Notes: generated by a model not told the origin, from the letters alone. Positions 2,830 through 27,373 are shown, counted from the stretch's first letter. The stretch: 57,106 nt of DNA from a virus (IMGVR_UViG_3300048897_000037:1-57106); one strand, 5' to 3'. Translations and numbers: made by a program.

Positions 2830-2960
2830 AACGGCATGGCGTGCCGGGTCTCTGGGTAGGGCTTGGATAGTCCCAGGACAAAAGCTCGGGGAACCTGGGC
2901 CAAGCAGGTGGAACCGAGCCTCCCCCTTGAACCCCCCTGGTCTTGTAGCAGGGGGGTTTC
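2830..2960 (+). ncRNA. putative small RNA 2 with kissing-loop motif (copy A, 2848-2919)
   Basis: two adjacent hairpins with complementary loops GGGCTTGGA / GGCCAAG; same architecture at 25432-25493. Confidence 0.6.
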
Positions 2961-2966
2961 TTGGTT
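2929..2966 (+). terminator. intrinsic terminator
   Basis: GAACCCCCCTG/CAGGGGGGTTT followed by CTTGGTTT. Confidence 0.7.
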
Positions 2967-2973
2967 TCAGGAC

Positions 2974-3002
2974 TTGCCCCCCACCCCTCCCCAGGGTATA
3001 GT
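2974..3002 (+). promoter_or_regulatory. sigA-type promoter
   Basis: TTGCCC-N17-TATAGT. Confidence 0.7.
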
Positions 3003-3018
3003 TATGATCATCTGGCAG

Positions 3019-3092
3019 GCCCCCTGTAGCTCAATGGGTCAGAGCACTCTCACCAAAGAGAGATTCCCGTTCGAACCGGGACGGGGGCACCA
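3019..3092 (+). tRNA. atypical or pseudo tRNA (Trp-like CCA in a 6-nt loop)
   Basis: D arm GCTC/GAGC, T arm TCCCG-TTCGAAC-CGGGA, encoded ACCA end; shortened anticodon loop/variable region, bulged acceptor stem. Confidence 0.65.
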
Positions 3093-3129
3093 GAACAACC
3101 AATCTCTTATCCCTTGAAAGGGGAATGCA

Positions 3130-3762
3130 ATGGACTACGCACTGAAGATCAAGAAGCTGAAAAGACTGAAGTGGGCCTGCCGAGCGATCGTGGCGACCGC
3201 CACCTTCGTTTCGGTCTGGGCGAACCAACTCCAAGCACAACGCAACGGAGCGAGCATCTTCATCTCGATCATGCCCCCACTCATCGTGATGGCAGGTTTC
3301 GAGTTGGTGAGCCGAATCCCGATCAGTAACGGGATCTGGGTCACGAGGTTCACTCGGCCCGTGGTTACCGCCAGCATCACCCTGGGCAGCGCCTGGTTGA
3401 GTTACTTCCACCAGCGCGACGCCTTCGGTCGCTACACGACCGACGTTTCCACCATCCGTGTCCTGCCACTGCTCATCGACGGCCTCATGGTCATCGCGGC
3501 GGTGTCCTTGGTCGAACTGAACGTCCAGGTAGCTTTCCTGGAGACCAAGCAGGCCGGCCTGGATGTGAGGGTTGAGCGGGCCCCACGGCCGGCAACCAAG
3601 GTGGTCGCGAAGGCGCCGTCGGGCAAGGAGCGGATCGCCCTGGTCCTAGCCCAGGCCCCCGATCTGGCTATCAAGGAGATCGCGGCCAAGGCTGGCGTGA
3701 GCTACAACTACGCTCACAGCATCGTCAAGGAGCTTCGGCCTCCACAGGCCATCGGGTCATGA
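3130..3762 (+). CDS. DUF2637/SpdA-like membrane protein with C-terminal HTH
   Basis: 4 TM segments, AWLSYFH and LPLLIDGLMVIA motifs, C-terminal IKEIAAKAGVSYNYA; GAAAGGGG RBS. Confidence 0.75.
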   Translation: MDYALKIKKLKRLKWACRAIVATATFVSVWANQLQAQRNGASIFISIMPPLIVMAGFELVSRIPISNGIWVTRFTRPVVTASITLGSAWLSYFHQRDAFGRYTTDVSTIRVLPLLIDGLMVIAAVSLVELNVQVAFLETKQAGLDVRVERAPRPATKVVAKAPSGKERIALVLAQAPDLAIKEIAAKAGVSYNYAHSIVKELRPPQAIGS

Positions 3763-4042: not shown

Positions 4043-4866
4043 CGGGAACGGCGCCACGCGGGCAGGGCCTTGGTCTTGAGTCCAGGCCCGGTGGGGTTGC
4101 GGTTGTAGTGGTCGGTGATCTGATCGGCCACCGCCATGGGTACCCGCATCCGTCGGGCCGCCGCGATGGTCTCAGCGTCGTTGAGAAGGGCACTGGGGCC
4201 CCCGGCGTACTGACTGAGCCGGTTGTAGAGCCGGTCGAAGTCGATCTTCGTGCCGTACTCCGTCAGGAAGGCGGCCAGGGCCTCGATGATGACCGCGCTA
4301 CCGGCGTGGCGATCGTTGCCCCAGGCCCGGTTCAGCACCATGGCCACGTCTTGCAGGACGTTCGGCTCGTCGCCGGCCGCCTGAGACCGTCGGTACACCC
4401 GCTCCAGGGCCTTGATGCACTGCAGGGTGCCGTTTCCGCCCTGGCGCTGGATCACCCAGCCGTAGTACTTGGTGACCTTGTCGATGTCGACGGCCACCGG
4501 GTCGCCGACGATGAGTCGGGCCCGGAACCGGTCCATGGCGTTGGGCTGGCTGCCGTCGTTGAGGTCGAGGAACAGCTGTGCCTCCTCTTCCAGGGTCAGG
4601 TCGTTGAACACGTTGCACAGCATCTCGCCGTTGTTGTCAGTCATGATCTTCACGGCTGACCAACGGTGCCATCCATCGACGATCACCTGAGTCACGGCAT
4701 TCCGCCGGGACACAGTGATGACGCCGAGGGCGGCCGGGTTGAAGTTCTTGATGATCCCCTCGACCTTGCGGTCGCTGTAGATCTCGCGCTGAACCTTCCT
4801 GTCGATCTCAAGATCCTTAACAGGAAGAACCTCTGTGTGGAAGCGCTTGTCCAGGGGGTTACTCAC
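4039..4866 (-). CDS. ParB/Srx-like N-terminal domain protein (DUF6551-like)
   Basis: LEIDRKVQR, FNPAALGVITVSRR, IVDGWHRW motifs. Confidence 0.75.
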   Translation of the reverse strand: MSNPLDKRFHTEVLPVKDLEIDRKVQREIYSDRKVEGIIKNFNPAALGVITVSRRNAVTQVIVDGWHRWSAVKIMTDNNGEMLCNVFNDLTLEEEAQLFLDLNDGSQPNAMDRFRARLIVGDPVAVDIDKVTKYYGWVIQRQGGNGTLQCIKALERVYRRSQAAGDEPNVLQDVAMVLNRAWGNDRHAGSAVIIEALAAFLTEYGTKIDFDRLYNRLSQYAGGPSALLNDAETIAAARRMRVPMAVADQITDHYNRNPTGPGLKTKALPAWRRSR

Positions 4867-17915: not shown

Positions 17916-20900
17916 GTGGGACTGGGCAGCTTTTGGGACCCGAACGACCACCCTCGCGGGTGGCACGGTCGGTTCGCGAAGAAGTGGAAAATCTCCGACA
18001 CGCTTCGGAAGCTGCTCGACGGTTTCACCCCTCGTACGTTCCAGTCGGACAGTCAGGCTGGCCAGTACGCCTTCAACCAGGGCCACAAGAACGGGCCGTT
18101 CTCCTCCGTTGAGCTGACCCGGCTCCGCAAGGACTGGGACGAGGCGCAGGACCACATCAGGGCTGGGGACATGGATCCCCAGACCAAGGCCTTCGACGAC
18201 ATGATGCAGTCCCACATGCATCCGACGTCGGACGGCTTGATCGCCACCACTACGTTCGGCGCGGATGCCTTGGGGCTGCGACCCGACCAGTTGCACGACG
18301 GTCCGGGCGGCATCACCGACCTGTTCGGCACCGTGCTGGGCAACAAGGGATACCAGGCCGTACACCTTGGTACGGATGTCACGCCCGGACAGCATGGTCC
18401 CGGCAAGATCAGCGCCACCATCATGGTGCCGGCCGGAACCCGGGTCGCCTTCCCTGGCCAGTCCCCCCAGGACCGGGGCTTCTTCCTGGACAAGGAACAG
18501 CCCCTGCTCGTCACCCGGATCGACCCGGACGGCATGGGCGGCTGGCGCATCGCTGCGGTCGCCGAACCGCACCCAGGCGTGGGTGCCTCTCAGGTCAGCC
18601 AGGACCTCAACCCCGGTCGCAAGGGGGTAGGCCTCACCCCTGAGGAGCGAGCCGCCCGACTGGCGGAACCATCCACCATGCCAGCACCGGCCACCCCCCA
18701 GGCTGCCCCGGCCACCGAGGCCGTCATGCGCCCCGAGTCGGTGCAGGCGCCCGCCGTGGGCCGCACCCCGGAGCAGGAGGCGGCGCGGGTCCAGCGCGCC
18801 CAGGCTGGGCGGCAGGCCAACGTCAACGAGGGCAACCCCCCGGTCCAGGCCCCACTGCCCACGCCCAACCCTCGGCCAGCCCCAGCCCCACCACCGGCCG
18901 CCGGGCCCCCGTCGCCCACCGGGGTACCGGACCGCAACGAGCCCATCCACGCCCCCTCCATCGGAGGAACAGGCAACGAAGGCAAGTCGGCTTCTGAGAT
19001 TGCCAACCGGCCACCAGAGCCGGCTCCGGAGCCTCCACCGGCGCTGTCCCCGGCAGAGCAGGGCAAGTCGCTCAAAGACGCCTATGTGGAGAGTGGCATC
19101 GAGTCCCCGGCTGCCGGCCCGCACCGGGCTGCCTTCAACCGGGCCTACCTGAACGCCAAGAGTCAGAACGGGCACCCGGAGCAGGCTCTCCGCAACCTGG
19201 AAGCCGACATCAAGTCGGTCGAGGAGAAGGCGGCCGAACAGAAGGTTCACCCCAGTGACCGGGCCGACATGCTCACCGCCGAGGCCGATGCCAAGTCAAT
19301 GAACGACCTGGCCGACCTGATCGCCACACACTTCGGACTACCTCGGGCCAAGAAGGAGGAGAAGGCTCCTAGCTCCCCGGTGCAGCGCACCGGGGCACCT
19401 GATGAGTTCCTGGGCGAGAAGAAGCCGGGCGCCCGCGAAGCCCGCAAGGTGTCCGGGCAGCCATCCCGTAGCGCCACCGGCCTCACCGAGCACGAACAGG
19501 CCGGCGCCGGGCCAGGTACGGCCGGCGTGGGTGGGCGCAAGGAGGGGGCTCCGGAGACTCCCGCGCCGCGCGGCTCCACTGGCACCACCAAGGAGACCCA
19601 GAAGCCCACGGTCAGCGCTGCCCGGGTGAAGGCCGGCGACGTAGTCCTGGCGCGCAAGGATGAGAACGGTAACTGGGTCCACACGTCACGCAAGACGGGC
19701 GCGACTCCGATCACGGTGACCGGCAAGCAGACTGGCAACGGGGCCCACATCATTGAGGGAACCGATCCTGAAGGCAACAAGGTCACCCTTCAGCCGATCC
19801 GTGGCCAGAACGTTTTGCACCGCCACCAGGAGAAGGCGCCCAAGGCGCCGGCCGCCAAGAAGGCGGCCAAGGCTGCGGCGCCCCAGGAGAAGCCGCTCTC
19901 TCACGACGAGATCGCCAAGCGTTCGGCCGAGATGCTGGCCCGTCCACCGGCTACCGGAGGCAAGGAGCAGCCACCGCTAACCGAGGCGGATCACCGGGAG
20001 ATGCTGGCCGGCAACAGCAAGGATCAGCTCCGCAAGATCGGTGAAGACCTGGGCGTCTCGGTGTCCGATAAGGACTCCAAGGCGTCCATGATCGACAAGA
20101 TCGCACCGGCTGCCGCTGCCGACACCGCCAAGCGGCGGGCCGAACGCGTGGCCGGCGAAGGTCCGAGCCCGGCCCTGGGGGAGCGTCAGAGCGCCGACAC
20201 CCCTGCCGTGGACCGTGTTCTGAAGGCCTACAACGACATCGTGGCCCAGGGCGACGGACACGACCGTCGTGTGTCCATTGCGGACATTCGGGCCGAGGTG
20301 GGCGGCGACCTGTCCCGGGCCGAACTGACCCGGGCGCTGCGGGAGATTGGTCGCGGCAACTCCGAGCACGGCGGCTTGCTGTCGCGTGGGGTGAAGCCGG
20401 ACGCCCGCACTGAGGCCAGCGGCATGGACATGGGCGGGGAGAAGGTTCACTTCCTGCAGCTCCCGCGCCCAGGCGAGAAGGAGCGTGGTAAGGAGACCAC
20501 CCCGGTCCCGAAGGAGGAGCCAGCCAAGGCGGTCGCCAAGGCGGCCAAGGCTGTACCGACCAAGGCCCCTGCGAAGGAAACCGGCGACCAGGCCGAGGTC
20601 TCCAAGGTTGCGAGCGCCTTCCATGCGGATTGGCAGAAGACGCAGGCACCCGAGGGGTCTGGCCGCAAGCCCAAGTTCAAGACGACCAAGGACGAAGCCT
20701 GGATCAAGAAGCACGGCACCGATCAGGTCGATATCGCCAACACCTCGTACGCTGATCTGCCCGACGACTGGCAGAAGGAAAACCGAGACGCGGCGGAGGT
20801 AGTGCAGCGCATCCTCAAGGAGCACGGCGGCACTGTTGATCTTTCTGACGAGAAGACGCGCCTTGAGGTTGGCGACCAGATCCACAAGGCTTGGCTGTCC

Positions 20901-23900
20901 CGGGAAAACAACAGCCACGCCAAGGGTGGTGAGCTGGACAAGCCTTTCTCGGAACTCTCCCGCGCAGAGCAGGACAAGGACACCGACCAACTGAAGGTCG
21001 CCATGGAGGTCCTGTCTCCGGCGAAGAAGGGCGGCACCAGTCCCGAAACAGTGTCGGCGGTCAAGCAGGCGTACGAGAACATCGTGGCCCGGCGCGGACC
21101 TGATGGTGACCGCAAGGTGTCCCTGCAGGACATTCGCCAAGAGTTGGATCTGCAGCACGGCTTCAGTCGGCCCGAGGTCGACAAGGCGCTGAAGGAGCTG
21201 GGCCGTGGTGGGTCGGAGCATGGTGGCCTGATCAGCGGTACCACCAACCCCAGCAACCGGGAGGCCGCCGGGGCCATGAAGATGGGCGGCGAGGACGTCC
21301 ACTTCCTGCAGCTACCGCGTCCCGGTGAGGCTGGCCGTGGCGGGGAGGTCACGCCCAACGCTCCCGAGTCTTCTGCTGAAGCGGATGCGGTACGGAACCT
21401 GGCTCCCGCCGACCAGAGCATCTATCACCGTGCCCGGGAAAGCGGGCAGACTCATGAACAGGCCATGGCGACGGTGGCTACCCCTGCGCCGGCAGCCGAG
21501 GCTAAGCCCTTGGAGAAGATGACCAAGGCTGAGCTACTGGCCCACCCTGATGCTGCAGGAGCCAAGCAGTCCTGGACCAAGGACAAGATCAAGCAGCACA
21601 TCCAGGCAGCGCAAGGTGCCAAGACTGCTGCGGCACAACAGGAAGCGGCGAAGGTTGTAGGGAAGGCCGCCCCGCGTCCCACTACACCCATCGACAACGC
21701 CCCCCGGGCCAACGAGTTCACCAAGGCCTGGGACACGGCCGGGATCCCGGAGGCACCGGGCTCGGCCGGGCGCTCCATGAAGGAGATCCGCTCCGACCTG
21801 GCCGAGGGGAAGATCGATCCCGCTGAAGGTGTCCGGCGCATGGAGTCGGAGATCTCCTTCAACAAGGAAGAACTGTCCCAAGTGGAGGCTGACCTCCGCG
21901 CCCCGGACCTAACCGACAAGCAACGGGCTGATCTGCAGGCACAGCACGCCAAGCTCACCGAAGGAGTGAAGGCGCAGGAGAAGGCGTCCGAGTTCCTGCG
22001 CTCCCACTTCGGTGGCGAAGGCGACAAGCCCACCGTGGAGGAAGTGAAGGCGTTCCTTCCGGAAGGTTCGGAGCGCTTCCTGGACAAGGCAACCCCGGAC
22101 GAGATGCGAGATGTTGCCCGGATTCAGGGGCTGGACGAGCCGAAGGGCTCCACGGCCGAGGAGATGTTCAATGACCTGTTGAAGCAGACCGTTGATCGGG
22201 CACTCAAAGAAAAGCGGGAAGAGGGTGCCAGTAAGGCGGCCAAGGCTGAAGCGGCCCGCCTGAAGAAGGAAGCCCGAGAAGCCGGCAAGGCTGGGTTCCG
22301 ACCGGGCGGTGCCAAGCACCTGGACGCGGCGAAGATCGCCGAGGGTTTGGACCTGGGCGAGGACAACAGCTACGTCCAGGACGCCCAGGCTGAGCTGAAC
22401 GACGGCAAGACCCCGAAGCAGGTCGCCGACCGTGTTCGGTTCATGGCCCAGGGGCTGGCCAACAGTAACGCGATCATCCATGGATCTGTTGCTGCCGGCC
22501 ACGAGACGCCCGACGACAAGATGCACCGGGAGACCAAGCTCGCCGAGGGTCGGGCCGCCGTGGCCAAGCTGGAGGAACTGGCCAAGCGGATCGAGGAGTC
22601 CAAGCGCCCCCGCAAGCCTCGGGCGCCGTCCACGAAGCTGACCCCCACGGATCATGTGGCGGCCAGGGAGGCGGCCAAGGCGACCGGTACCCCGGTGGCC
22701 GAGGTGCGCTCCGCTATGGAGGACGCCAAGAAGGCCGACGCCAAGTTGCAGGAGCTGGGCATCCCCACCACGGCCGACGAGCTACACGCCCGGGTGATCG
22801 CGCGCGCCTCAGGGCCGTTCAATGACGCCAAGACCGCCGAGGAAGCACGCCGGGCTGCGACATCCATGCATGGCAACCTGACCCTGGCCGAGATCCGCAA
22901 GATGGGTGCGGAGCACGGCATCACGGGCCGGTCCAAGAAGGACATCACCGACAAGATCATTGAGCGCCGGTTCCCGCCAGAGCCAGGCGCCCCAACTCGG
23001 CTCACTGGTGGCCAGTTCGACCAGTTGAAGGCCGGCGACCCCATCGACATCCACTTGGGCGGCAGCAAGACGCGCAAGGACTCGGTGGCCAAGGTGGACC
23101 CGGATGGCACCCTGCACACGAAGGGTGGCTACAAGTACGGACCCACCAGCGACGTGCAGATCTCCCGGGGCGGAGCGGCCGACACCCGGCCATCCACGCC
23201 GGCTCGCAGCGCCCAGGTGGAGCGGGCCCGGAAGACGGCCGACGTGGTGGCCGAGGTTCACGAACTGGTGGGCAATGGGGCCAGCCCCGACGCCATCCGG
23301 GCCCGGCTGCGCACGGCCGGCCAGGCCAACGGAATCGACACTGCTGAGCTGCAGTCCCTGGCTGATGACCCACAGGCGCTCACCAAGGCGGCTGACAAGC
23401 TGGGCACCTCGGCCGGCCTGTCCCGGGTGGGGGACGTCGGATCCACGACGCCGTTCAACCGGACCAGTCACGAAGGACCCAGTGGCCGGGATCTGGGCAA
23501 CGGGGAGAACGTCCGGGTGACCCGTCCAGGCCACACTGCACGCCTCAGTAACGGCGAGGATGTCACCATCAGCCGGCCCAAGGTGCACCCGGTGTCGGCC
23601 GAGCCAGCGAAGGCAACCCCGGCGAAGCGGGCGGCCAAGAAGGCTCTCCCGGGCCCCCAGGCCAGTCCTCAGGAAGCCTTGGCGGCACTGAACAATGCGA
23701 ACAGCTCCACCACCCGTGAAGAGGCACACGGGATGATCGAACACTTCACGCGTGACGAGCTGATCAGCATGGCCAAGGAGCTGTCAGTTCCCAGCGCCAG
23801 CAGCAAGAGCAAGAAGGCTCTCCGTGATGACATCGTTCATGCGACGGTGGGAGTTCGAGCTGACTCTGAGGCAACCCGTGACCTTCTCCGAGCCCCGCGC

Positions 23901-24821
23901 GCCGGAGACAACGGCTTCCTGCCGACTGACCAGGAGCGACTGGGTGGCCGCCTTGCAGCGGCCAAGAAGGCAGCCAAGGGGGCCGGCCCGGCCGCTGAGC
24001 CACGACTCAGCCCTGCAGCGGAGCAGGCCCGCCTGGAGCAGGAGCGGGCTGACAACATGGCCCGGCTGGCGGCGGCCAAGGCAGTGAAGAAGGCCGCCCC
24101 GACCAAGGCCGCGCCCGCCAAGAAGGAGCGGTTCAGCGAGGCGGCGGCCGAGAAGCAGTTCGGTCCGCAGCCTGGGGAGGCCCGCATTGAGTCTGGCAAG
24201 TTCTCCGACAAGCCGTTGCGTCAGCAGACCTGGGGCGGCCGGGCTCAACCCAATGACGTCCGGTTCCACGAAGATGGAGCTATTGGCAGTGCCCTGAGTT
24301 CGATGGGCCAAGACAAGCGCCTGGATGTTGGTGGCGAGCCGCTCTACAACGTGCTGGGTCAGATCGCCACGGACGTGAACCGTGGAAACATCACCCCGGC
24401 CCAGGGCCTGGAGCGGTACAAGGCCTTGGCGGCTCGACTTCCAGAAGGCAGCAATGCAAGGAAGGAGCTGGAGTACGCCATCCAGAAGATTGACTCCCCT
24501 CCGCGCAAGCCAAACCTGCCAGAGGGGACCCCGGACTACCTTCGGAAGCTGGCTGACCGGTTGGCCGAGATCCCCATTGCCCGCAAGGATGTTGGACGCA
24601 CTGGACGCAAGGGTGAGCTGGACCAGGTGGAGGAGCTGGCCCGACTGTTGACTGACGGAGAGCCCAAGTCTCGATTCACGGCGCAATCCGCACTGGAGAG
24701 GATGATGGGTACCCGGCACGAGAGCGACAGTGACGCCGGGGACCAGCAGATCCTTGCAGCCATCCAGGAAGCACTGAAGGATGAGGAAAGAGCACGGATG
24801 GCCGCCCGTAAGGCGAAGTAG
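17916..24821 (+). CDS. giant multidomain head-associated/ejected protein (degenerate ART, wHTH x2, RyR-like, HeH repeats, GrpE-like)
   Basis: 2301-aa ORF in head module; N-terminal WDPNDHPRGWHGRF motif; domain motifs listed in findings. Confidence 0.75.
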   Translation: MGLGSFWDPNDHPRGWHGRFAKKWKISDTLRKLLDGFTPRTFQSDSQAGQYAFNQGHKNGPFSSVELTRLRKDWDEAQDHIRAGDMDPQTKAFDDMMQSHMHPTSDGLIATTTFGADALGLRPDQLHDGPGGITDLFGTVLGNKGYQAVHLGTDVTPGQHGPGKISATIMVPAGTRVAFPGQSPQDRGFFLDKEQPLLVTRIDPDGMGGWRIAAVAEPHPGVGASQVSQDLNPGRKGVGLTPEERAARLAEPSTMPAPATPQAAPATEAVMRPESVQAPAVGRTPEQEAARVQRAQAGRQANVNEGNPPVQAPLPTPNPRPAPAPPPAAGPPSPTGVPDRNEPIHAPSIGGTGNEGKSASEIANRPPEPAPEPPPALSPAEQGKSLKDAYVESGIESPAAGPHRAAFNRAYLNAKSQNGHPEQALRNLEADIKSVEEKAAEQKVHPSDRADMLTAEADAKSMNDLADLIATHFGLPRAKKEEKAPSSPVQRTGAPDEFLGEKKPGAREARKVSGQPSRSATGLTEHEQAGAGPGTAGVGGRKEGAPETPAPRGSTGTTKETQKPTVSAARVKAGDVVLARKDENGNWVHTSRKTGATPITVTGKQTGNGAHIIEGTDPEGNKVTLQPIRGQNVLHRHQEKAPKAPAAKKAAKAAAPQEKPLSHDEIAKRSAEMLARPPATGGKEQPPLTEADHREMLAGNSKDQLRKIGEDLGVSVSDKDSKASMIDKIAPAAAADTAKRRAERVAGEGPSPALGERQSADTPAVDRVLKAYNDIVAQGDGHDRRVSIADIRAEVGGDLSRAELTRALREIGRGNSEHGGLLSRGVKPDARTEASGMDMGGEKVHFLQLPRPGEKERGKETTPVPKEEPAKAVAKAAKAVPTKAPAKETGDQAEVSKVASAFHADWQKTQAPEGSGRKPKFKTTKDEAWIKKHGTDQVDIANTSYADLPDDWQKENRDAAEVVQRILKEHGGTVDLSDEKTRLEVGDQIHKAWLSRENNSHAKGGELDKPFSELSRAEQDKDTDQLKVAMEVLSPAKKGGTSPETVSAVKQAYENIVARRGPDGDRKVSLQDIRQELDLQHGFSRPEVDKALKELGRGGSEHGGLISGTTNPSNREAAGAMKMGGEDVHFLQLPRPGEAGRGGEVTPNAPESSAEADAVRNLAPADQSIYHRARESGQTHEQAMATVATPAPAAEAKPLEKMTKAELLAHPDAAGAKQSWTKDKIKQHIQAAQGAKTAAAQQEAAKVVGKAAPRPTTPIDNAPRANEFTKAWDTAGIPEAPGSAGRSMKEIRSDLAEGKIDPAEGVRRMESEISFNKEELSQVEADLRAPDLTDKQRADLQAQHAKLTEGVKAQEKASEFLRSHFGGEGDKPTVEEVKAFLPEGSERFLDKATPDEMRDVARIQGLDEPKGSTAEEMFNDLLKQTVDRALKEKREEGASKAAKAEAARLKKEAREAGKAGFRPGGAKHLDAAKIAEGLDLGEDNSYVQDAQAELNDGKTPKQVADRVRFMAQGLANSNAIIHGSVAAGHETPDDKMHRETKLAEGRAAVAKLEELAKRIEESKRPRKPRAPSTKLTPTDHVAAREAAKATGTPVAEVRSAMEDAKKADAKLQELGIPTTADELHARVIARASGPFNDAKTAEEARRAATSMHGNLTLAEIRKMGAEHGITGRSKKDITDKIIERRFPPEPGAPTRLTGGQFDQLKAGDPIDIHLGGSKTRKDSVAKVDPDGTLHTKGGYKYGPTSDVQISRGGAADTRPSTPARSAQVERARKTADVVAEVHELVGNGASPDAIRARLRTAGQANGIDTAELQSLADDPQALTKAADKLGTSAGLSRVGDVGSTTPFNRTSHEGPSGRDLGNGENVRVTRPGHTARLSNGEDVTISRPKVHPVSAEPAKATPAKRAAKKALPGPQASPQEALAALNNANSSTTREEAHGMIEHFTRDELISMAKELSVPSASSKSKKALRDDIVHATVGVRADSEATRDLLRAPRAGDNGFLPTDQERLGGRLAAAKKAAKGAGPAAEPRLSPAAEQARLEQERADNMARLAAAKAVKKAAPTKAAPAKKERFSEAAAEKQFGPQPGEARIESGKFSDKPLRQQTWGGRAQPNDVRFHEDGAIGSALSSMGQDKRLDVGGEPLYNVLGQIATDVNRGNITPAQGLERYKALAARLPEGSNARKELEYAIQKIDSPPRKPNLPEGTPDYLRKLADRLAEIPIARKDVGRTGRKGELDQVEELARLLTDGEPKSRFTAQSALERMMGTRHESDSDAGDQQILAAIQEALKDEERARMAARKAK

Positions 24822-24833
24822 AAGGAGAAGATC

Positions 24834-25004
24834 ATGCCCTGCGCTTGCAACGGTGGTGCGACTCAGTCGACGGCTGCCCAAGACAAGGAGTACGAGGTCA
24901 AGCTGCCCAACGGGCGCACAGAGTACGTGCGCGGGGAGCACGCGGCCAAGGTCGCGGCGACCATGGGCGGTCCCGGTACCACGTACTCCGCCACTGGACG
25001 CTGA
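24834..25004 (+). CDS. small protein (MPCACNGG...) of the kind found before actinophage capsid genes
   Basis: AAGGAG RBS, 56 aa, followed by terminator. Confidence 0.7.
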   Translation: MPCACNGGATQSTAAQDKEYEVKLPNGRTEYVRGEHAAKVAATMGGPGTTYSATGR

Positions 25005-25006
25005 AC

Positions 25007-25042
25007 GCAAAGAAGCCCCCACCGAAATGGAGGCTTCTTTGC
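25007..25042. terminator. bidirectional terminator
   Basis: GCAAAGAAGCC/GGCTTCTTTGC IR where the head operon and the antisense RNA operon converge. Confidence 0.8.
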
Positions 25043-25065
25043 TGCTGGCCTAGATCCCTCTACCA

Positions 25066-25147
25066 ACCCCACCCTGGAGGGAAGCTGAGCGACCCCGAAG
25101 GGTTTCTGCTACCTGGCTGGCAGCTTCGTCAGGCTTAACGGTGGGAC
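25066..25147 (-). ncRNA. type I hammerhead ribozyme
   Basis: minus strand GTTAAGC-CTGACGA-A-GCTGCC-AGCCA-GGTAGC-A-GAAA-CCC-TTCG-GGG-TC-GCTCAGC: complete core, GUC site, UUCG-capped stem III. Confidence 0.75.
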
Positions 25148-25192
25148 TTGCACCTCTCATCACACCTCACCAGCACGGAGAGGTCTTAAGCG

Positions 25193-25266
25193 TGATCCGA
25201 GGAGGGGTCGAACCTCCGACGCGCGGGTTAAGGGCCCGCCGCTCTTGACCGCTGAGCTACCGGATC
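25193..25266 (-). tRNA. tRNA-Lys(CTT), C33 variant, no encoded CCA
   Basis: GATCCGG/TCGGATC acceptor, GCTC/GAGC D stem, GCGGG-CCCTTAA-CCCGC, GGAGG-TTCGACC-CCTCC. Confidence 0.9.
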
Positions 25267-25273
25267 GGGTGGC

Positions 25274-25346
25274 TGGAACTGGTGTCCCAGTCGAGGGGAC
25301 TTCTACACGGTAGCGACCCGTGTTTTCGTGAGGCCTCAACCAGCCC
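25274..25346 (-). ncRNA. tRNA-like cloverleaf RNA
   Basis: GGCTGGT/ACCAGTT then CCA; ACACGG-GTCGCTA-CCGTGT; GTCCC-CTCGACT-GGGAC T-arm-like. Confidence 0.5.
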
Positions 25347-25351
25347 AACCG

Positions 25352-25427
25352 TGGCGCAGGTCGGATTCGAACCGACGATCTCGGGCTTATGGGGCCCACG
25401 GGGACGACCGAACTCCCCTACCGCGCT
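25352..25427 (-). tRNA. tRNA-Met(CAT), initiator-like, C33 variant
   Basis: AGCGCGG/CTGCGCC (A1xC72 mismatch), G11:C24, TGGGC-CCCATAA-GCCCG, GTCGG-TTCGAAT-CCGAC. Confidence 0.88.
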
Positions 25428-25431
25428 CTGT

Positions 25432-25493
25432 TGGTGCCACGCTGCTTGGACAGCCGCACCACTAGACCTGCTACTCCAAGCCCGCTGGTCCAG
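25432..25493 (-). ncRNA. kissing-loop RNA motif (copy B)
   Basis: CTGGACC..GGGCTTGGA..GGTCTAG plus TGGTGC-G-GCTG-TCCAAG-CAGC-GTG-GCACCA. Confidence 0.6.
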
Positions 25494-25500
25494 GTAACCC

Positions 25501-25529
25501 ACCCTACCCAGGCCTCTTGACGGTTGCAA
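25501..25529 (-). promoter_or_regulatory. promoter of the antisense RNA operon
   Basis: TTGCAA-N17-TAGGGT. Confidence 0.65.
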
Positions 25530-25545
25530 CATGTTGATCTACCCT
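25517..25545 (+). promoter_or_regulatory. promoter of the capsid operon
   Basis: TTGACG-N17-TACCCT, overlapping the divergent promoter. Confidence 0.6.
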
Positions 25546-25642
25546 TCGCCCAACAGGTGTCTGGCTTCTGTGCCGGCTTGCTGAGCGGTGGATGCGGCCT
25601 GTCCCTCACCAAGGATGATCGACTTCCTTGTGAGGAGTGACA

Positions 25643-27373
25643 GTGTTCCAAATCCCCGAGGACCTGGACCAGTTCAGTGTCTCCAGCTTGCAGGATCTGG
25701 CCAAGATCGCGCGTGACGAGTACACCGCGCTGAAGGAAAACGTCCGTATCGAGACGGTCACCGCTGAGGAAATCGAGCGCCTGGAGGAACTCCAGGGCTT
25801 CGTGTTCAGCACCGTTCCCACGGAGATCGCCGCGCGCCAGGAGCTGTCCGACCGGTTCACGGCGGCCACCACCGAGCCCAACACCGAGGAGCCGGCCGAG
25901 GAGGCCCCCGCCACTGAGGAGCCGGCGGTTGAGGCCGTCGTGGCCTCCACCAAGGTCACCGTGGCCGACATGAAGGCGGCCGGCGGCGGCAACACCGAGG
26001 TCACCCCCGCCGGGACGACCCGCCAGTCCTACTCCACGCTGGTCGCCTCGGCGACGGTTCAGGCGCAGGGCGGCAGCTACGAGTCCGGCCAGGTCCTGAC
26101 CAGCCTCCTGGACGTGGCCAAGGTGTTCGAGGCCCGCTCCATGGCCCACAACTCGATGGCCGCCCGTGGCATGTCCACGATGACCTCGGGCCCGGTGTCC
26201 TCGCCAGTGGCCCAGCTGGTCCGCAACTACCCGGACGAGTTCTCCGTGTCCGGCACGGATGACGACTACGAGAAGCTGCTCAAGGTCGCCAACGAGGCCC
26301 GACTGCCCGGCGGATCCTTGCTCGCCTCGGTGGAGCTGGACCGCAAGCGTCTCAACACTGAGGCCCCGTACCGGGACTCTCTGGTTGCCGCGCAGGGTTG
26401 GTGTGCTCCCTCGGAGACTGACTACGACATCTGTCTGCAGATCACCACGGACGGCCTGTTCGACGCCCCCGAGGTGCAGGCCCGCCGGGGCGGCATCCGG
26501 CACAACACGGGCCTGGAGTTCGACACGATCTTCGGCGACGGCACCGGGTTCTTCAACCTGACTGAGGCCCAGGTTGCGGCCGGCACCACCAAGACCTGCG
26601 TCGAGATCCCCTGCCCCAGCTTCACTGACACCCGACTGGGTGTCACCGGCCTCTGCCTGACCGGCAACATCCTGGCCATCCGGGGCTACCCGGAGATGAC
26701 CGCCACGTTCACCCGGGGTGCCCTGGCGGCGTCCGCGCACCAGATCAACCGGGAGCAGATCGCGGTCGTGGCGGCCGGCTCCACGGCGGTGTCGCTGGCC
26801 AACCAGCCGTACACCTCCGACGGCAGTGTCGTGTCGCAGGTTCTCAGCGCGGTCGAGATGGCCATTGTGGACATCAAGTACCGGCTGCGGCTGCAGCGCT
26901 CGGCCACCCTGGAAGTGCTCATGCCGTTCTGGATGGGCGCCCAGATGCGGGCCGACTGGATTCGGCGCAACGCCACCGGGTCTGGCCCGGACGCTCTCAC
27001 CCTGGCTGACTCGGCGATCAGCGCGGCCTACGCGGCCCGTGGGGCCCGGGTCCAGTACGTGTACGACTGGCAGGACGCCTTCTCCTCGGCGTCGCTGTCG
27101 GGCGGCGGCCCTGGCGCGGACACTCCGATGACTGAGCTGCCCACCTCCCTGCAGTTCATCGTGTACCCGTCGGGTACGTGGGTCAGGGCGGTGTCCGACG
27201 TCATCACCCTGAACTCGGTCTACGACAGCACCAAGCTGGCCACCAACCAGGTCACGCACCTGTTCACGGAAACCGGCTGGGCGATGTTGAAGATGTGCCC
27301 ACTGTCTCGCATCTACACCGTGGCCATCTGCCCCAACGGCAGCACTGGGGTTCAGCGCGCGGTGACTTGCTAA
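25643..27373 (+). CDS. major capsid (hexamer) protein with N-terminal scaffold-like region
   Basis: LVAAQGWCAPSETDYD, ARRGGI, K-C-EIPCP-F motifs of cluster-B-like MCPs; GAGGAG RBS (alternative start 25637). Confidence 0.88.
   Translation: MFQIPEDLDQFSVSSLQDLAKIARDEYTALKENVRIETVTAEEIERLEELQGFVFSTVPTEIAARQELSDRFTAATTEPNTEEPAEEAPATEEPAVEAVVASTKVTVADMKAAGGGNTEVTPAGTTRQSYSTLVASATVQAQGGSYESGQVLTSLLDVAKVFEARSMAHNSMAARGMSTMTSGPVSSPVAQLVRNYPDEFSVSGTDDDYEKLLKVANEARLPGGSLLASVELDRKRLNTEAPYRDSLVAAQGWCAPSETDYDICLQITTDGLFDAPEVQARRGGIRHNTGLEFDTIFGDGTGFFNLTEAQVAAGTTKTCVEIPCPSFTDTRLGVTGLCLTGNILAIRGYPEMTATFTRGALAASAHQINREQIAVVAAGSTAVSLANQPYTSDGSVVSQVLSAVEMAIVDIKYRLRLQRSATLEVLMPFWMGAQMRADWIRRNATGSGPDALTLADSAISAAYAARGARVQYVYDWQDAFSSASLSGGGPGADTPMTELPTSLQFIVYPSGTWVRAVSDVITLNSVYDSTKLATNQVTHLFTETGWAMLKMCPLSRIYTVAICPNGSTGVQRAVTC

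Follow-up and report, generated by a model that had tools for sequence, protein, structure and literature searches.

The virus IMGVR_UViG_3300048897_000037, whose whole record of 57,106 nucleotides was analysed and is called the window below, encodes on its minus strand two intact tRNA genes, one for an initiator-type tRNA-Met(CAU) and the other for an elongator tRNA-Lys(CUU), and both tRNAs carry C instead of U at position 33 of the anticodon loop (C33 and U33, respectively). U33 is regarded as a near-invariant base of tRNA and is the base of the U-turn. The interpretation to which we give tentative preference, with slightly less than even confidence, is that C33 represents a tolerated pyrimidine exchange, favoured by a high G+C content under the weaker constraint acting on phage tRNAs, and that it is long established in the initiator and recent in tRNA-Lys.

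The initial annotation, made from the sequence alone, had read the loops as CC-CAT-AA and CC-CTT-AA with C33 in both, and ARAGORN, the Rfam model and the cloverleaves all agree with this reading. The anticodon arm of tRNA-Lys has a 5-bp stem GCGGG/CCCGC and a 7-nt loop CCCUUAA (C32 C33 C34 U35 U36 A37 A38). This tRNA has a canonical cloverleaf, the invariants, the anticodon CUU and the discriminator base A73, and U33 alone is absent. The arm of tRNA-Met comprises a 5-bp stem UGGGC/GCCCG and a 7-nt loop CCCAUAA (C32 C33 C34 A35 U36 A37 A38), and both the anticodon CAU and A73 are present. In both tRNAs, positions U8, G53, T54, T55, C56, A58 and C61 are canonical.

The details noted earlier for tRNA-Met, namely a 1:72 mismatch, a purine 11:pyrimidine 24 pair and a GGG run at 28-30, were recovered with Infernal and in the cloverleaf. 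The acceptor stem begins with an A1xC72 mismatch (non-canonical by Infernal, unpaired by ARAGORN), followed by G2:C71 and C3:G70. Position 1:72 is thus without a Watson-Crick pair, as in initiators, but its bases differ from the C1xA72 that is canonical in bacteria. A purine 11:pyrimidine 24 pair is another mark of bacterial initiator tRNAs and is represented by G11:C24, in contrast to an elongator tRNA-Met of an Actinomycetes metagenome-assembled genome (MAG), whose D-stem GCUC/GAGC has C11:G24. Bacterial initiators are also marked by three consecutive G:C pairs, 29:41, 30:40 and 31:39. The stem pairs of the window tRNA-Met are U27.G43, G28:C42, G29:C41, G30:C40 and C31:G39; 29:41 and 30:40 are therefore G:C, 31:39 is C:G, and G28:C42 is additional. 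The anticodon stem is identical in type in the relatives L060, L064 and L450.

The window is a metagenome-assembled contig, and the cytidines might have been produced by an error of assembly or sequencing, as the initial annotation had allowed; the probability of this is negligible. Sequencing runs were viewed at the level of contigs. The independent soil run X2, which belongs to a different sample and study, has contigs identical to the window over 24900-25559. A 986-base contig of the rhizosphere run X5 retains 25190-25427, with both tRNAs and the spacer and with C unchanged at both sites, and the trailer (25001-25189, 117 other letters) and the leader (25428-25495) are swapped for other sequence. 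The C33 of tRNA-Met is also present in the separately assembled L450, a 6.6-kb contig found in one metagenome scan, which contains the same cassette and is 83-84% identical over a giant open reading frame (ORF).

The two cytidines have separate histories. Two contigs of run X3 have A at plus-strand position 25233, corresponding to a U33 allele of tRNA-Lys (depth 6.46 of 9.06), together with a one-base deletion in the D-loop at 25246. In L450, tRNA-Met is identical at 75/76 positions (98.7%) and retains C33, and tRNA-Lys is identical at 70/73 aligned bases (95.9%), with one gap, and has U33. The leader and the spacer are only 57.1% and 60.2% identical to those of L450, and the values for the trailer plus terminator (25013-25192) and for a promoter-like block (25498-25603) are 97.2% and 96.2%. 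The conservation of the tRNAs against that of the leader and spacer indicates purifying selection on both. The C33 of tRNA-Met, common to L450 too, predates the split of the two lineages, and the C33 of tRNA-Lys is a younger allele coexisting with U33 alleles in soil. The argument that the same change in two unrelated tRNAs speaks for selection does not hold in the form in which it had been made, because, as L450 and X3 indicate, the two C33 are not one event.

The occurrence of C33 was surveyed in samples of at most about 120 loci per scan, with tRNA calls by ARAGORN; related phages were counted as distinct sequences, and the statistics ignore kinship. An initiator pattern (C32-C33, a CWU anticodon, AA, a G+C-rich stem and GTTC) was found in viruses at 25 loci, and 22 of the 24 new ones contain a C33 tRNA-Met(CAU), which in most cases has a GGG/CCC stem and is mismatched at 1:72; often no other tRNA lies nearby. 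The U33 version of the pattern was found at no fewer than 116 viral loci, with at least 94 distinct U33 tRNA-Met sequences, so C33 accounts for at most about one fifth of such phage initiator-type tRNAs. In cellular genomes, the C33 pattern occurs at a minimum of 120 loci, comprising at least 105 C33 tRNA-Met genes called by ARAGORN and at least 63 distinct sequences. Their sources among the matches listed are Phycisphaerae, Pirellulales, Sedimentisphaerales, Erysipelotrichaceae, Patescibacteria and DPANN archaea. For the initiator arm GGGCYCAUAACCC, the C33 form was the sole match in two complete Phycisphaerales chromosomes and in one Bacilli MAG, and of the two initiator copies of Fructilactobacillus lindneri DSM 20690, in a native tRNA operon, one has U33 and the other C33. 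Native bacterial C33 initiators were seen on contigs L274, L283, L221 and L255. Judging from the many cellular sequences and from the Phycisphaerales chromosomes where it is the sole form found, C33 appears to be a normal, stable state of the initiator in several prokaryotic lineages. The earlier statement that U33 is almost universal in bacteria is not true of initiators, among which C33 is abundant in phages and in several cellular lineages.

A survey of position 33, which had been proposed as a check for related phage tRNAs, was carried out on 1133 distinct phage tRNAs not selected by pattern, and revealed C in 66 (5.8%), G in 3 and A in 2. The C33 rate depends on the G+C content, being 3.8-4.0% below 50%, 8.2% at 50-60% and 9.4% (16/170) at 60% or more (Mann-Whitney p = 0.0012). 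Given these rates and the frequency of C33 in initiator-type tRNA-Met, its presence in both of two tRNAs, the chance of which we estimate at about 1-2%, is unusual but not extraordinary.

A paired sample was obtained with one pattern blind to position 33, run on viral and cellular collections; its counts refer to the matches listed, and those of the invariants were parsed from ARAGORN structure strings. Viral tRNA-Lys(CUU) had U33 in 66 cases and C33 in 2, and the neighbouring tRNAs had U in 703, C in 42, G in 2 and A in 2. Cellular tRNA-Lys(CUU) had U33 in 92 cases and C33 in 0, and the neighbouring tRNAs had U in 100 and another base in 0. Departures from U33 numbered 48/811 in viruses, 44 of them C, versus 0/191 in cells (p = 4e-5). 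Departures from U8 (39/723 versus 0/189) and T54 (25/811 versus 0/191) were distributed likewise, and tRNA-Lys(CUU) is no hotspot of C33 in phages (2/68). A search with the exact Lys arm gave, in cells, 2 tRNAs among 28 hits for the C33 form versus 18 among 53 for the U33 form, and 1 versus 6 in viruses; these numbers are small, and the cellular hits include tRNA arrays.

C33 was also found in elongator tRNAs of cells. In a Pseudomonadota MAG (G008), with 35 tRNAs found, the sole two Lys tRNAs (CUU and UUU) both have C33, and the other 33 tRNAs have U33; the two Lys genes are adjacent (965-1120 of L040, which is G008:C22) and dissimilar in sequence. In an Actinomycetes MAG (G007, 38 tRNAs), the sole Asn tRNA and one of the four CAU tRNAs have C33. 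MAGs may be incomplete, and "sole" here denotes the sole tRNA found. Two actinomycete MAG contigs likewise carry C33 tRNAs amid cellular genes, namely tRNA-Met and tRNA-Asn at 5010-5193 of L232, and tRNA-Met, tRNA-Glu(UUC), tRNA-Asn and tRNA-Asp at 295-789 of L259. A prophage context for the C33 tRNAs of L040, L232 and L259 was considered and rejected, as Pfam reveals ordinary cellular genes. According to the accessible part of PMC3664417, a U33C mutant of yeast tRNA-Gln supports growth with reduced efficiency. Because of this mutant and of the sole Lys and Asn tRNAs of G008 and G007, C at position 33 appears to be compatible with decoding.

The literature on anticodon nucleases and on the modification of A37 to N6-threonylcarbamoyladenosine (t6A37) bears on the possible effects of C33; statements from PMC2610378, PMC13692257, PMC12409363, PMC8887486 and PMC5041475 refer here and below to the accessible portions of these papers. 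The initial annotation had rightly maintained that tRNA-Lys and initiator tRNA are documented targets of nucleases. PrrC cleaves 3' of U33 (PMC2610378), so that its cut site adjoins position 33. Cleavage of anticodon loops after uridines, U33 included, is described for a Cas13b enzyme (preprint PMC13692257). The AriB nuclease of PARIS, which had also been named as relevant, has its specificity at positions 36-41 and cuts at 40|41 (PMC12409363), so its bearing on C33 is weakened. The γ-toxin of K. lactis cuts C33 substrates as well as the wild type (PMC2275089). Nuclease-insensitive phage tRNAs were hypothesised by van den Berg et al. 2023 (PMC10264068), and the main text of that paper contains 0 mentions of position 33 or the U-turn. 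The determinants of t6A for bacterial TsaBCDE and yeast KEOPS are C32, U33, U36, A37 and A38 (PMC8887486). In both window tRNAs, C32, U36, A37 and A38 are present and U33 is replaced by C. E. coli TsaBCDE leaves a U33C mutant of the initiator unmodified in vitro, and yeast KEOPS requires U33 (PMC8887486); by analogy, A37 of both window tRNAs is probably without t6A. Avoidance of t6A as a general driver of C33 was nevertheless rejected. In a first sample, C33 occurred in 11/103 decoders of ANN codons versus 13/257 others (p = 0.063), and in the larger sample in 26/402 versus 40/731 (p = 0.51).

Several observations weigh against C33 being a merely tolerated exchange. U33 is kept in GC-rich cellular genomes, so G+C pressure alone is insufficient. 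Both Lys isoacceptors have C33 in a 234-kb viral contig (L010), and such pairs, there and in G008, are not easily ascribed to drift. C33 is clustered by phage (permutation p = 0.0076; e.g. 6/30, 6/27 and 5/14) and by anticodon (Ile GAU 10/41, Val GAC 4/11, Glu CUC 4/19). The prevalence of C among the non-U33 phage tRNAs (66/71) is compatible with transition bias and selection alike. By annotation, an RNA ligase, and in phage Gilson also a polynucleotide kinase, stands beside the tRNA arrays of related cultured actinophages, which suggests that anticodon nucleases matter in such hosts. A real, though doubtful, possibility is that C33 was selected as a means of evasion, since a host nuclease requiring U33 or a t6A37-dependent toxin would spare the phage tRNAs, which would survive when the host tRNA-Lys and initiator tRNA are destroyed. 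The candidates would be a PrrC/RloC-type or uridine-specific (HEPN) nuclease cutting at 33|34, or a t6A37-dependent toxin. The cleavage sites of PrrC and Cas13b and the block of bacterial t6A formation by C33 in vitro are consistent with this, as is the resistance to nucleases proposed or demonstrated for loop-changed phage tRNAs in PMC12409363 and in the accessible part of PMC10264068. The C33 tRNAs are intact otherwise, their clustering and the convergence in L010 and G008 are as evasion would predict, the Lys C33/U33 polymorphism in soil is compatible with an arms race, and a cultured phage, DSS3P8, shares a C33 tRNA-Lys(CUU). The same evasion reading is opposed by the indifference of γ-toxin to C33, by the position of the AriB determinants, and by the fact that the C33 tRNA-Met is a native initiator of free-living bacteria too. 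Neither the t6A class of ANN decoders nor tRNA-Lys(CUU) is enriched in C33, the C33 rate follows G+C content, and U8 and T54 are relaxed as well. A search of the literature, mostly outside subscription journals, yielded no publication that deals with C33 in the tRNAs of phages, with bacterial initiators having C33 or with what U33C does to PrrC cleavage, and no report of U33C protecting against any bacterial nuclease; no tRNA repair or defence-related gene was detected in the window among 30 proteins searched by Pfam and 9 by PHROGs. The wider proposal, that C33 is a general counter-defence allele by which phages and some bacteria, using the sole substitution that still decodes, escape host nucleases and toxins needing U33, is rather unlikely.

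Other explanations have little probability. If the tRNAs were pseudogenes or barely functional remnants, C33 would be one lesion among others. An aberrant tRNA-like gene with a 6-nt anticodon loop does exist elsewhere in this phage (3019-3092), the three closest IMG/VR relatives have no tRNAs at the site, and departures from invariants are commoner in phage than in cellular tRNAs. Nevertheless, C33 is the sole invariant affected in the window tRNAs, their Rfam scores are normal, and they are 96-99% conserved in L450 where the leader and spacer are not. The C33 tRNAs of phages in general show no greater degeneracy than those with U33, with another invariant deviating or unparsed in 20/89 C33 and 275/1220 U33 tRNAs (22.5% in both), and their Rfam scores in eleven loci (42-69 bits) are similar to those of neighbours. 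Decay is thus very improbable, in accordance with the initial annotation. A comparably small probability is assigned to a non-decoding role, in which the tRNAs would serve as decoys or in regulation, for instance by sequestering a nuclease or an RNA-modifying enzyme. The antisense placement of the genes, the strongly conserved 180-nt trailer alongside them, and the prospect that C33 would make them poor substrates or possibly inhibitors of the t6A machinery are in keeping with such a role. On the other hand, the cloverleaves are canonical, the identity sets for MetRS and LysRS are complete by sequence (anticodon and A73), the sole tRNAs found for Lys in one cellular MAG and for Asn in another are C33 elongators, and nothing specific indicates decoy action. 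Restoration of U33 by C-to-U editing after transcription is more improbable still; the idea derives solely from the genomic C. No deaminase domain was found in the 30 window proteins scanned by Pfam or the 9 scanned by PHROGs, the small ORFs lying outside these scans; C33 tRNAs were found in numerous unrelated phages and cells, and no bacterial C33 editing turned up in the literature searched. We know of no bacterial C33 editing. The initial annotation had mentioned both decoy function and editing, and no evidence supporting either was found.

If C33 is the tolerated exchange preferred here, it would have arisen by a T-to-C transition, favoured in a GC-rich genome, and would persist because phage tRNAs are less constrained than cellular ones and C is the sole alternative at position 33 that still works. 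The two genes would be working tRNA genes and would most likely top up initiation and AAG decoding in infection. The role in AAG supply is proposed because AAG makes up 574/611 of the Lys codons of the phage, and the neighbouring 2301-aa ORF contains 170 of them. Enzymes that read or cut at U33 would act less well on such tRNAs, and some protection may follow as a by-product.

The tRNA genes would form one minus-strand unit consisting of a promoter-like block, tRNA-Met, a spacer, tRNA-Lys, a conserved trailer and a terminator hairpin, which would lie antisense, inserted between virion genes and the capsid gene. The coordinates of the features are given in the table.

Features of the tRNA unit and its flanks (positions in the window)
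Feature	Position	Strand	Basis
Possible tRNA-unit promoter, TTGCAA-17 nt-TAGGGT (TANNNT type)	25501..25529	-	Inferred from sequence reading
tRNA-Met(CAU), initiator-type, 76 nt, CCA not encoded	25352..25427	-	ARAGORN; Rfam RF00005, 47.4 bits
C33 of tRNA-Met (G on + strand)	25392	-	Cloverleaf; unchanged in X2, X5 and L450; outside X3 coverage
Inter-tRNA spacer, poorly conserved	25267..25351	-	60.2% to L450; fold z-score -1.5
tRNA-Lys(CUU), elongator, 74 nt, A73, CCA not encoded	25193..25266	-	ARAGORN; Rfam RF00005, 55.8 bits
C33 of tRNA-Lys (G on + strand), polymorphic in nature	25233	-	C in X2 and X5; U33 in X3 and L450
Conserved non-coding trailer downstream of tRNA-Lys	25043..25192	-	25013-25192, 97.2% to L450
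G+C-rich hairpin and U run, likely terminator of the tRNA unit	25008..25042	-	Minimum free energy fold, sequence
2301-aa ORF flanking the tRNA unit	17916..24821	+	No confident family match
Major capsid protein gene flanking the tRNA unit	25637..27373	+	phrog_777, E 2.6e-120

A scan of 24700-25750 for sigma-70 consensus promoters gave no site. Overlapping plus-strand hexamers, TTGACG-17 nt-TACCCT, face the capsid gene within the conserved block 25498-25603. The terminator-like hairpin was not reported by a consensus terminator scan; on the other strand, it likely also terminates a small ORF ending at 25004. The trailer region 25013-25192 is more conserved than the coding sequence of L450, the 83-84% relative, and gives a weak match to RsmY at 25013-25126 (25.7 bits, below the gathering score of 57); it may represent a phage small RNA. 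A 109-nt contig from a soil RNA-seq run (X19) matches 25272-25351 alone, that is the spacer only, and hints weakly at transcription. It may derive from a processed precursor, but could also be due to DNA carry-over or to an interrupted assembly graph. As a proof of tRNA expression it was rejected, because it covers the spacer only.

The window is a complete IMG/VR virus record, linear, with a CheckV completeness of 88 and a G+C content of about 64%. It encodes a terminase, a portal, a MuF-like protein, the 2301-aa ORF, a major capsid protein, a tape measure protein, a primase-helicase, glycosyltransferases and a GH25 lysin. The best named relative of the capsid protein belongs to Actinoplanes phage phiAsp2 (45%), and the sequencing runs holding matching contigs are from soil. 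On these grounds, the virus is an uncultured siphovirus from soil whose host is probably an actinomycete. Direct searches for the host gave a single 83-base match in a megablast of 20 kb and 0 cellular matches to the 25-base U33 form of the Lys arm. A comparison with 301 genomes of the phylum of G007 revealed no full-length homologue, only partial T-arm matches for tRNA-Met in 47 of the 301.

The 2301-aa ORF contains 7.5% Lys, compared with 3.1% in the other genes; Ala, Gly, Glu and Pro are abundant in it as well, and its coding strand has a strong skew of A over T. In relatives, the same position is occupied by ORFs that are truncated by the end of the locus and measure roughly 1870-1890 aa. 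In the three closest IMG/VR relatives (capsid 71-73% identical), only about 190 bases separate the capsid gene from the small ORF, with no tRNA in between, and the 7-nt-loop tRNAs found elsewhere in their genomes all have U33. Three tRNA-like genes were called by ARAGORN in the window. The one at 3019-3092, on the plus strand, scores 40.7 bits with Rfam, has the anticodon loop ACCAAA and encodes CCA. Other tRNA-like genes with a 6-nt loop are present in relatives, which also carry a tRNA with a CUA anticodon (amber-suppressor type), e.g. at 1500-1575 of L069. Among viral contigs with large tRNA arrays, L015 encodes a bacterial-type RNase P RNA (2937-3246, 137 bits) and L075 a tmRNA (4160-4600, 61.9 bits).

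The surveys suggest that about one phage tRNA in 17 has C33. If several bacterial lineages use C33 initiators, the textbook rule of U33 has a structured set of exceptions. The natural C33 and U33 alleles of the phage tRNA-Lys form an isogenic-like pair for studying the roles of U33 in decoding speed, t6A37 formation and nuclease recognition. If C33 does confer protection, its presence would be a simple way of recognising pressure from defences that target tRNA; and if the counter-defence proposal is true, the Lys polymorphism in soil would reflect an arms race in progress, for which the natural alleles provide a test. If C33 is not protective, it would illustrate how relaxed selection and G+C pressure shape phage tRNAs and would advise caution against counter-defence readings of every loop change.

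The window tRNAs belong to a kind already known, since phage tRNAs with anticodon-loop variants have been discussed as nuclease-insensitive (PMC10264068); what the window adds is a case with two such tRNAs, one of them an initiator, and a pair of natural C33 and U33 alleles. In common with these and with the T5 tRNA-Lys, tRNA-Thr and tRNA-Asn set against PARIS AriB (PMC12409363), they have the anticodon class of a known nuclease target and a substitution in the anticodon loop. The T5 tRNA-Lys, however, evades AriB through positions 39 and 41 (PMC12409363), and the change in the window is at 33; the Lys isoacceptor is CUU, not UUU. A closer parallel is the tRNA-Lys(CUU) of the cultured Roseobacter phage DSS3P8 (KT870145.1, 17991-18062; L697, 58-132), which has the same CC-CUU-AA loop and matches the window by blastn at 82% over 76% of the query; an identical hit came from Ruegeria phage vB_RpoS-V10. 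DSS3P8 differs in its host, Ruegeria pomeroyi, of another phylum, and in its size of 146 kb, and the T arm and acceptor of its tRNA-Lys are drawn with mismatches by ARAGORN. It offers a tractable cultured phage for probing the meaning of C33.

The closest named homologues of tRNA-Met (79-85% identity) are those of Streptomyces phages (Gilson, Annadreamy and relatives) and Arthrobacter phages (Racecar, Atuin), whose hosts are Actinomycetota. They share the type of 1:72 mismatch and the D-loop with the window but, unlike it, carry U33, which was found in 24/24 tRNAs of Gilson and 22/22 of Racecar in the stretches read of these two cultured actinophages. Their tRNAs are located in large arrays beside an annotated RNA ligase, plus a polynucleotide kinase in Gilson. 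Many eukaryotic cytoplasmic initiators have C33 (PMC5041475, PMC8887486), and bacterial initiators are given as U33 (PMC8887486); compared with that listing, in the portion accessible, C33 initiators were found here in Planctomycetota, Erysipelotrichaceae, Fructilactobacillus lindneri, Patescibacteria and DPANN archaea. The window tRNA-Met shares with eukaryotic cytoplasmic and prokaryotic C33 initiators the CAU anticodon, C32-C33, A37-A38, a G:C-rich stem and a mismatched 1:72, and it differs from them in being phage-encoded, in having A1xC72 rather than the C1xA72 of bacteria and in having C:G at 31:39. As in the known C33 initiators, C33 is kept within its lineage, here as far as L450.

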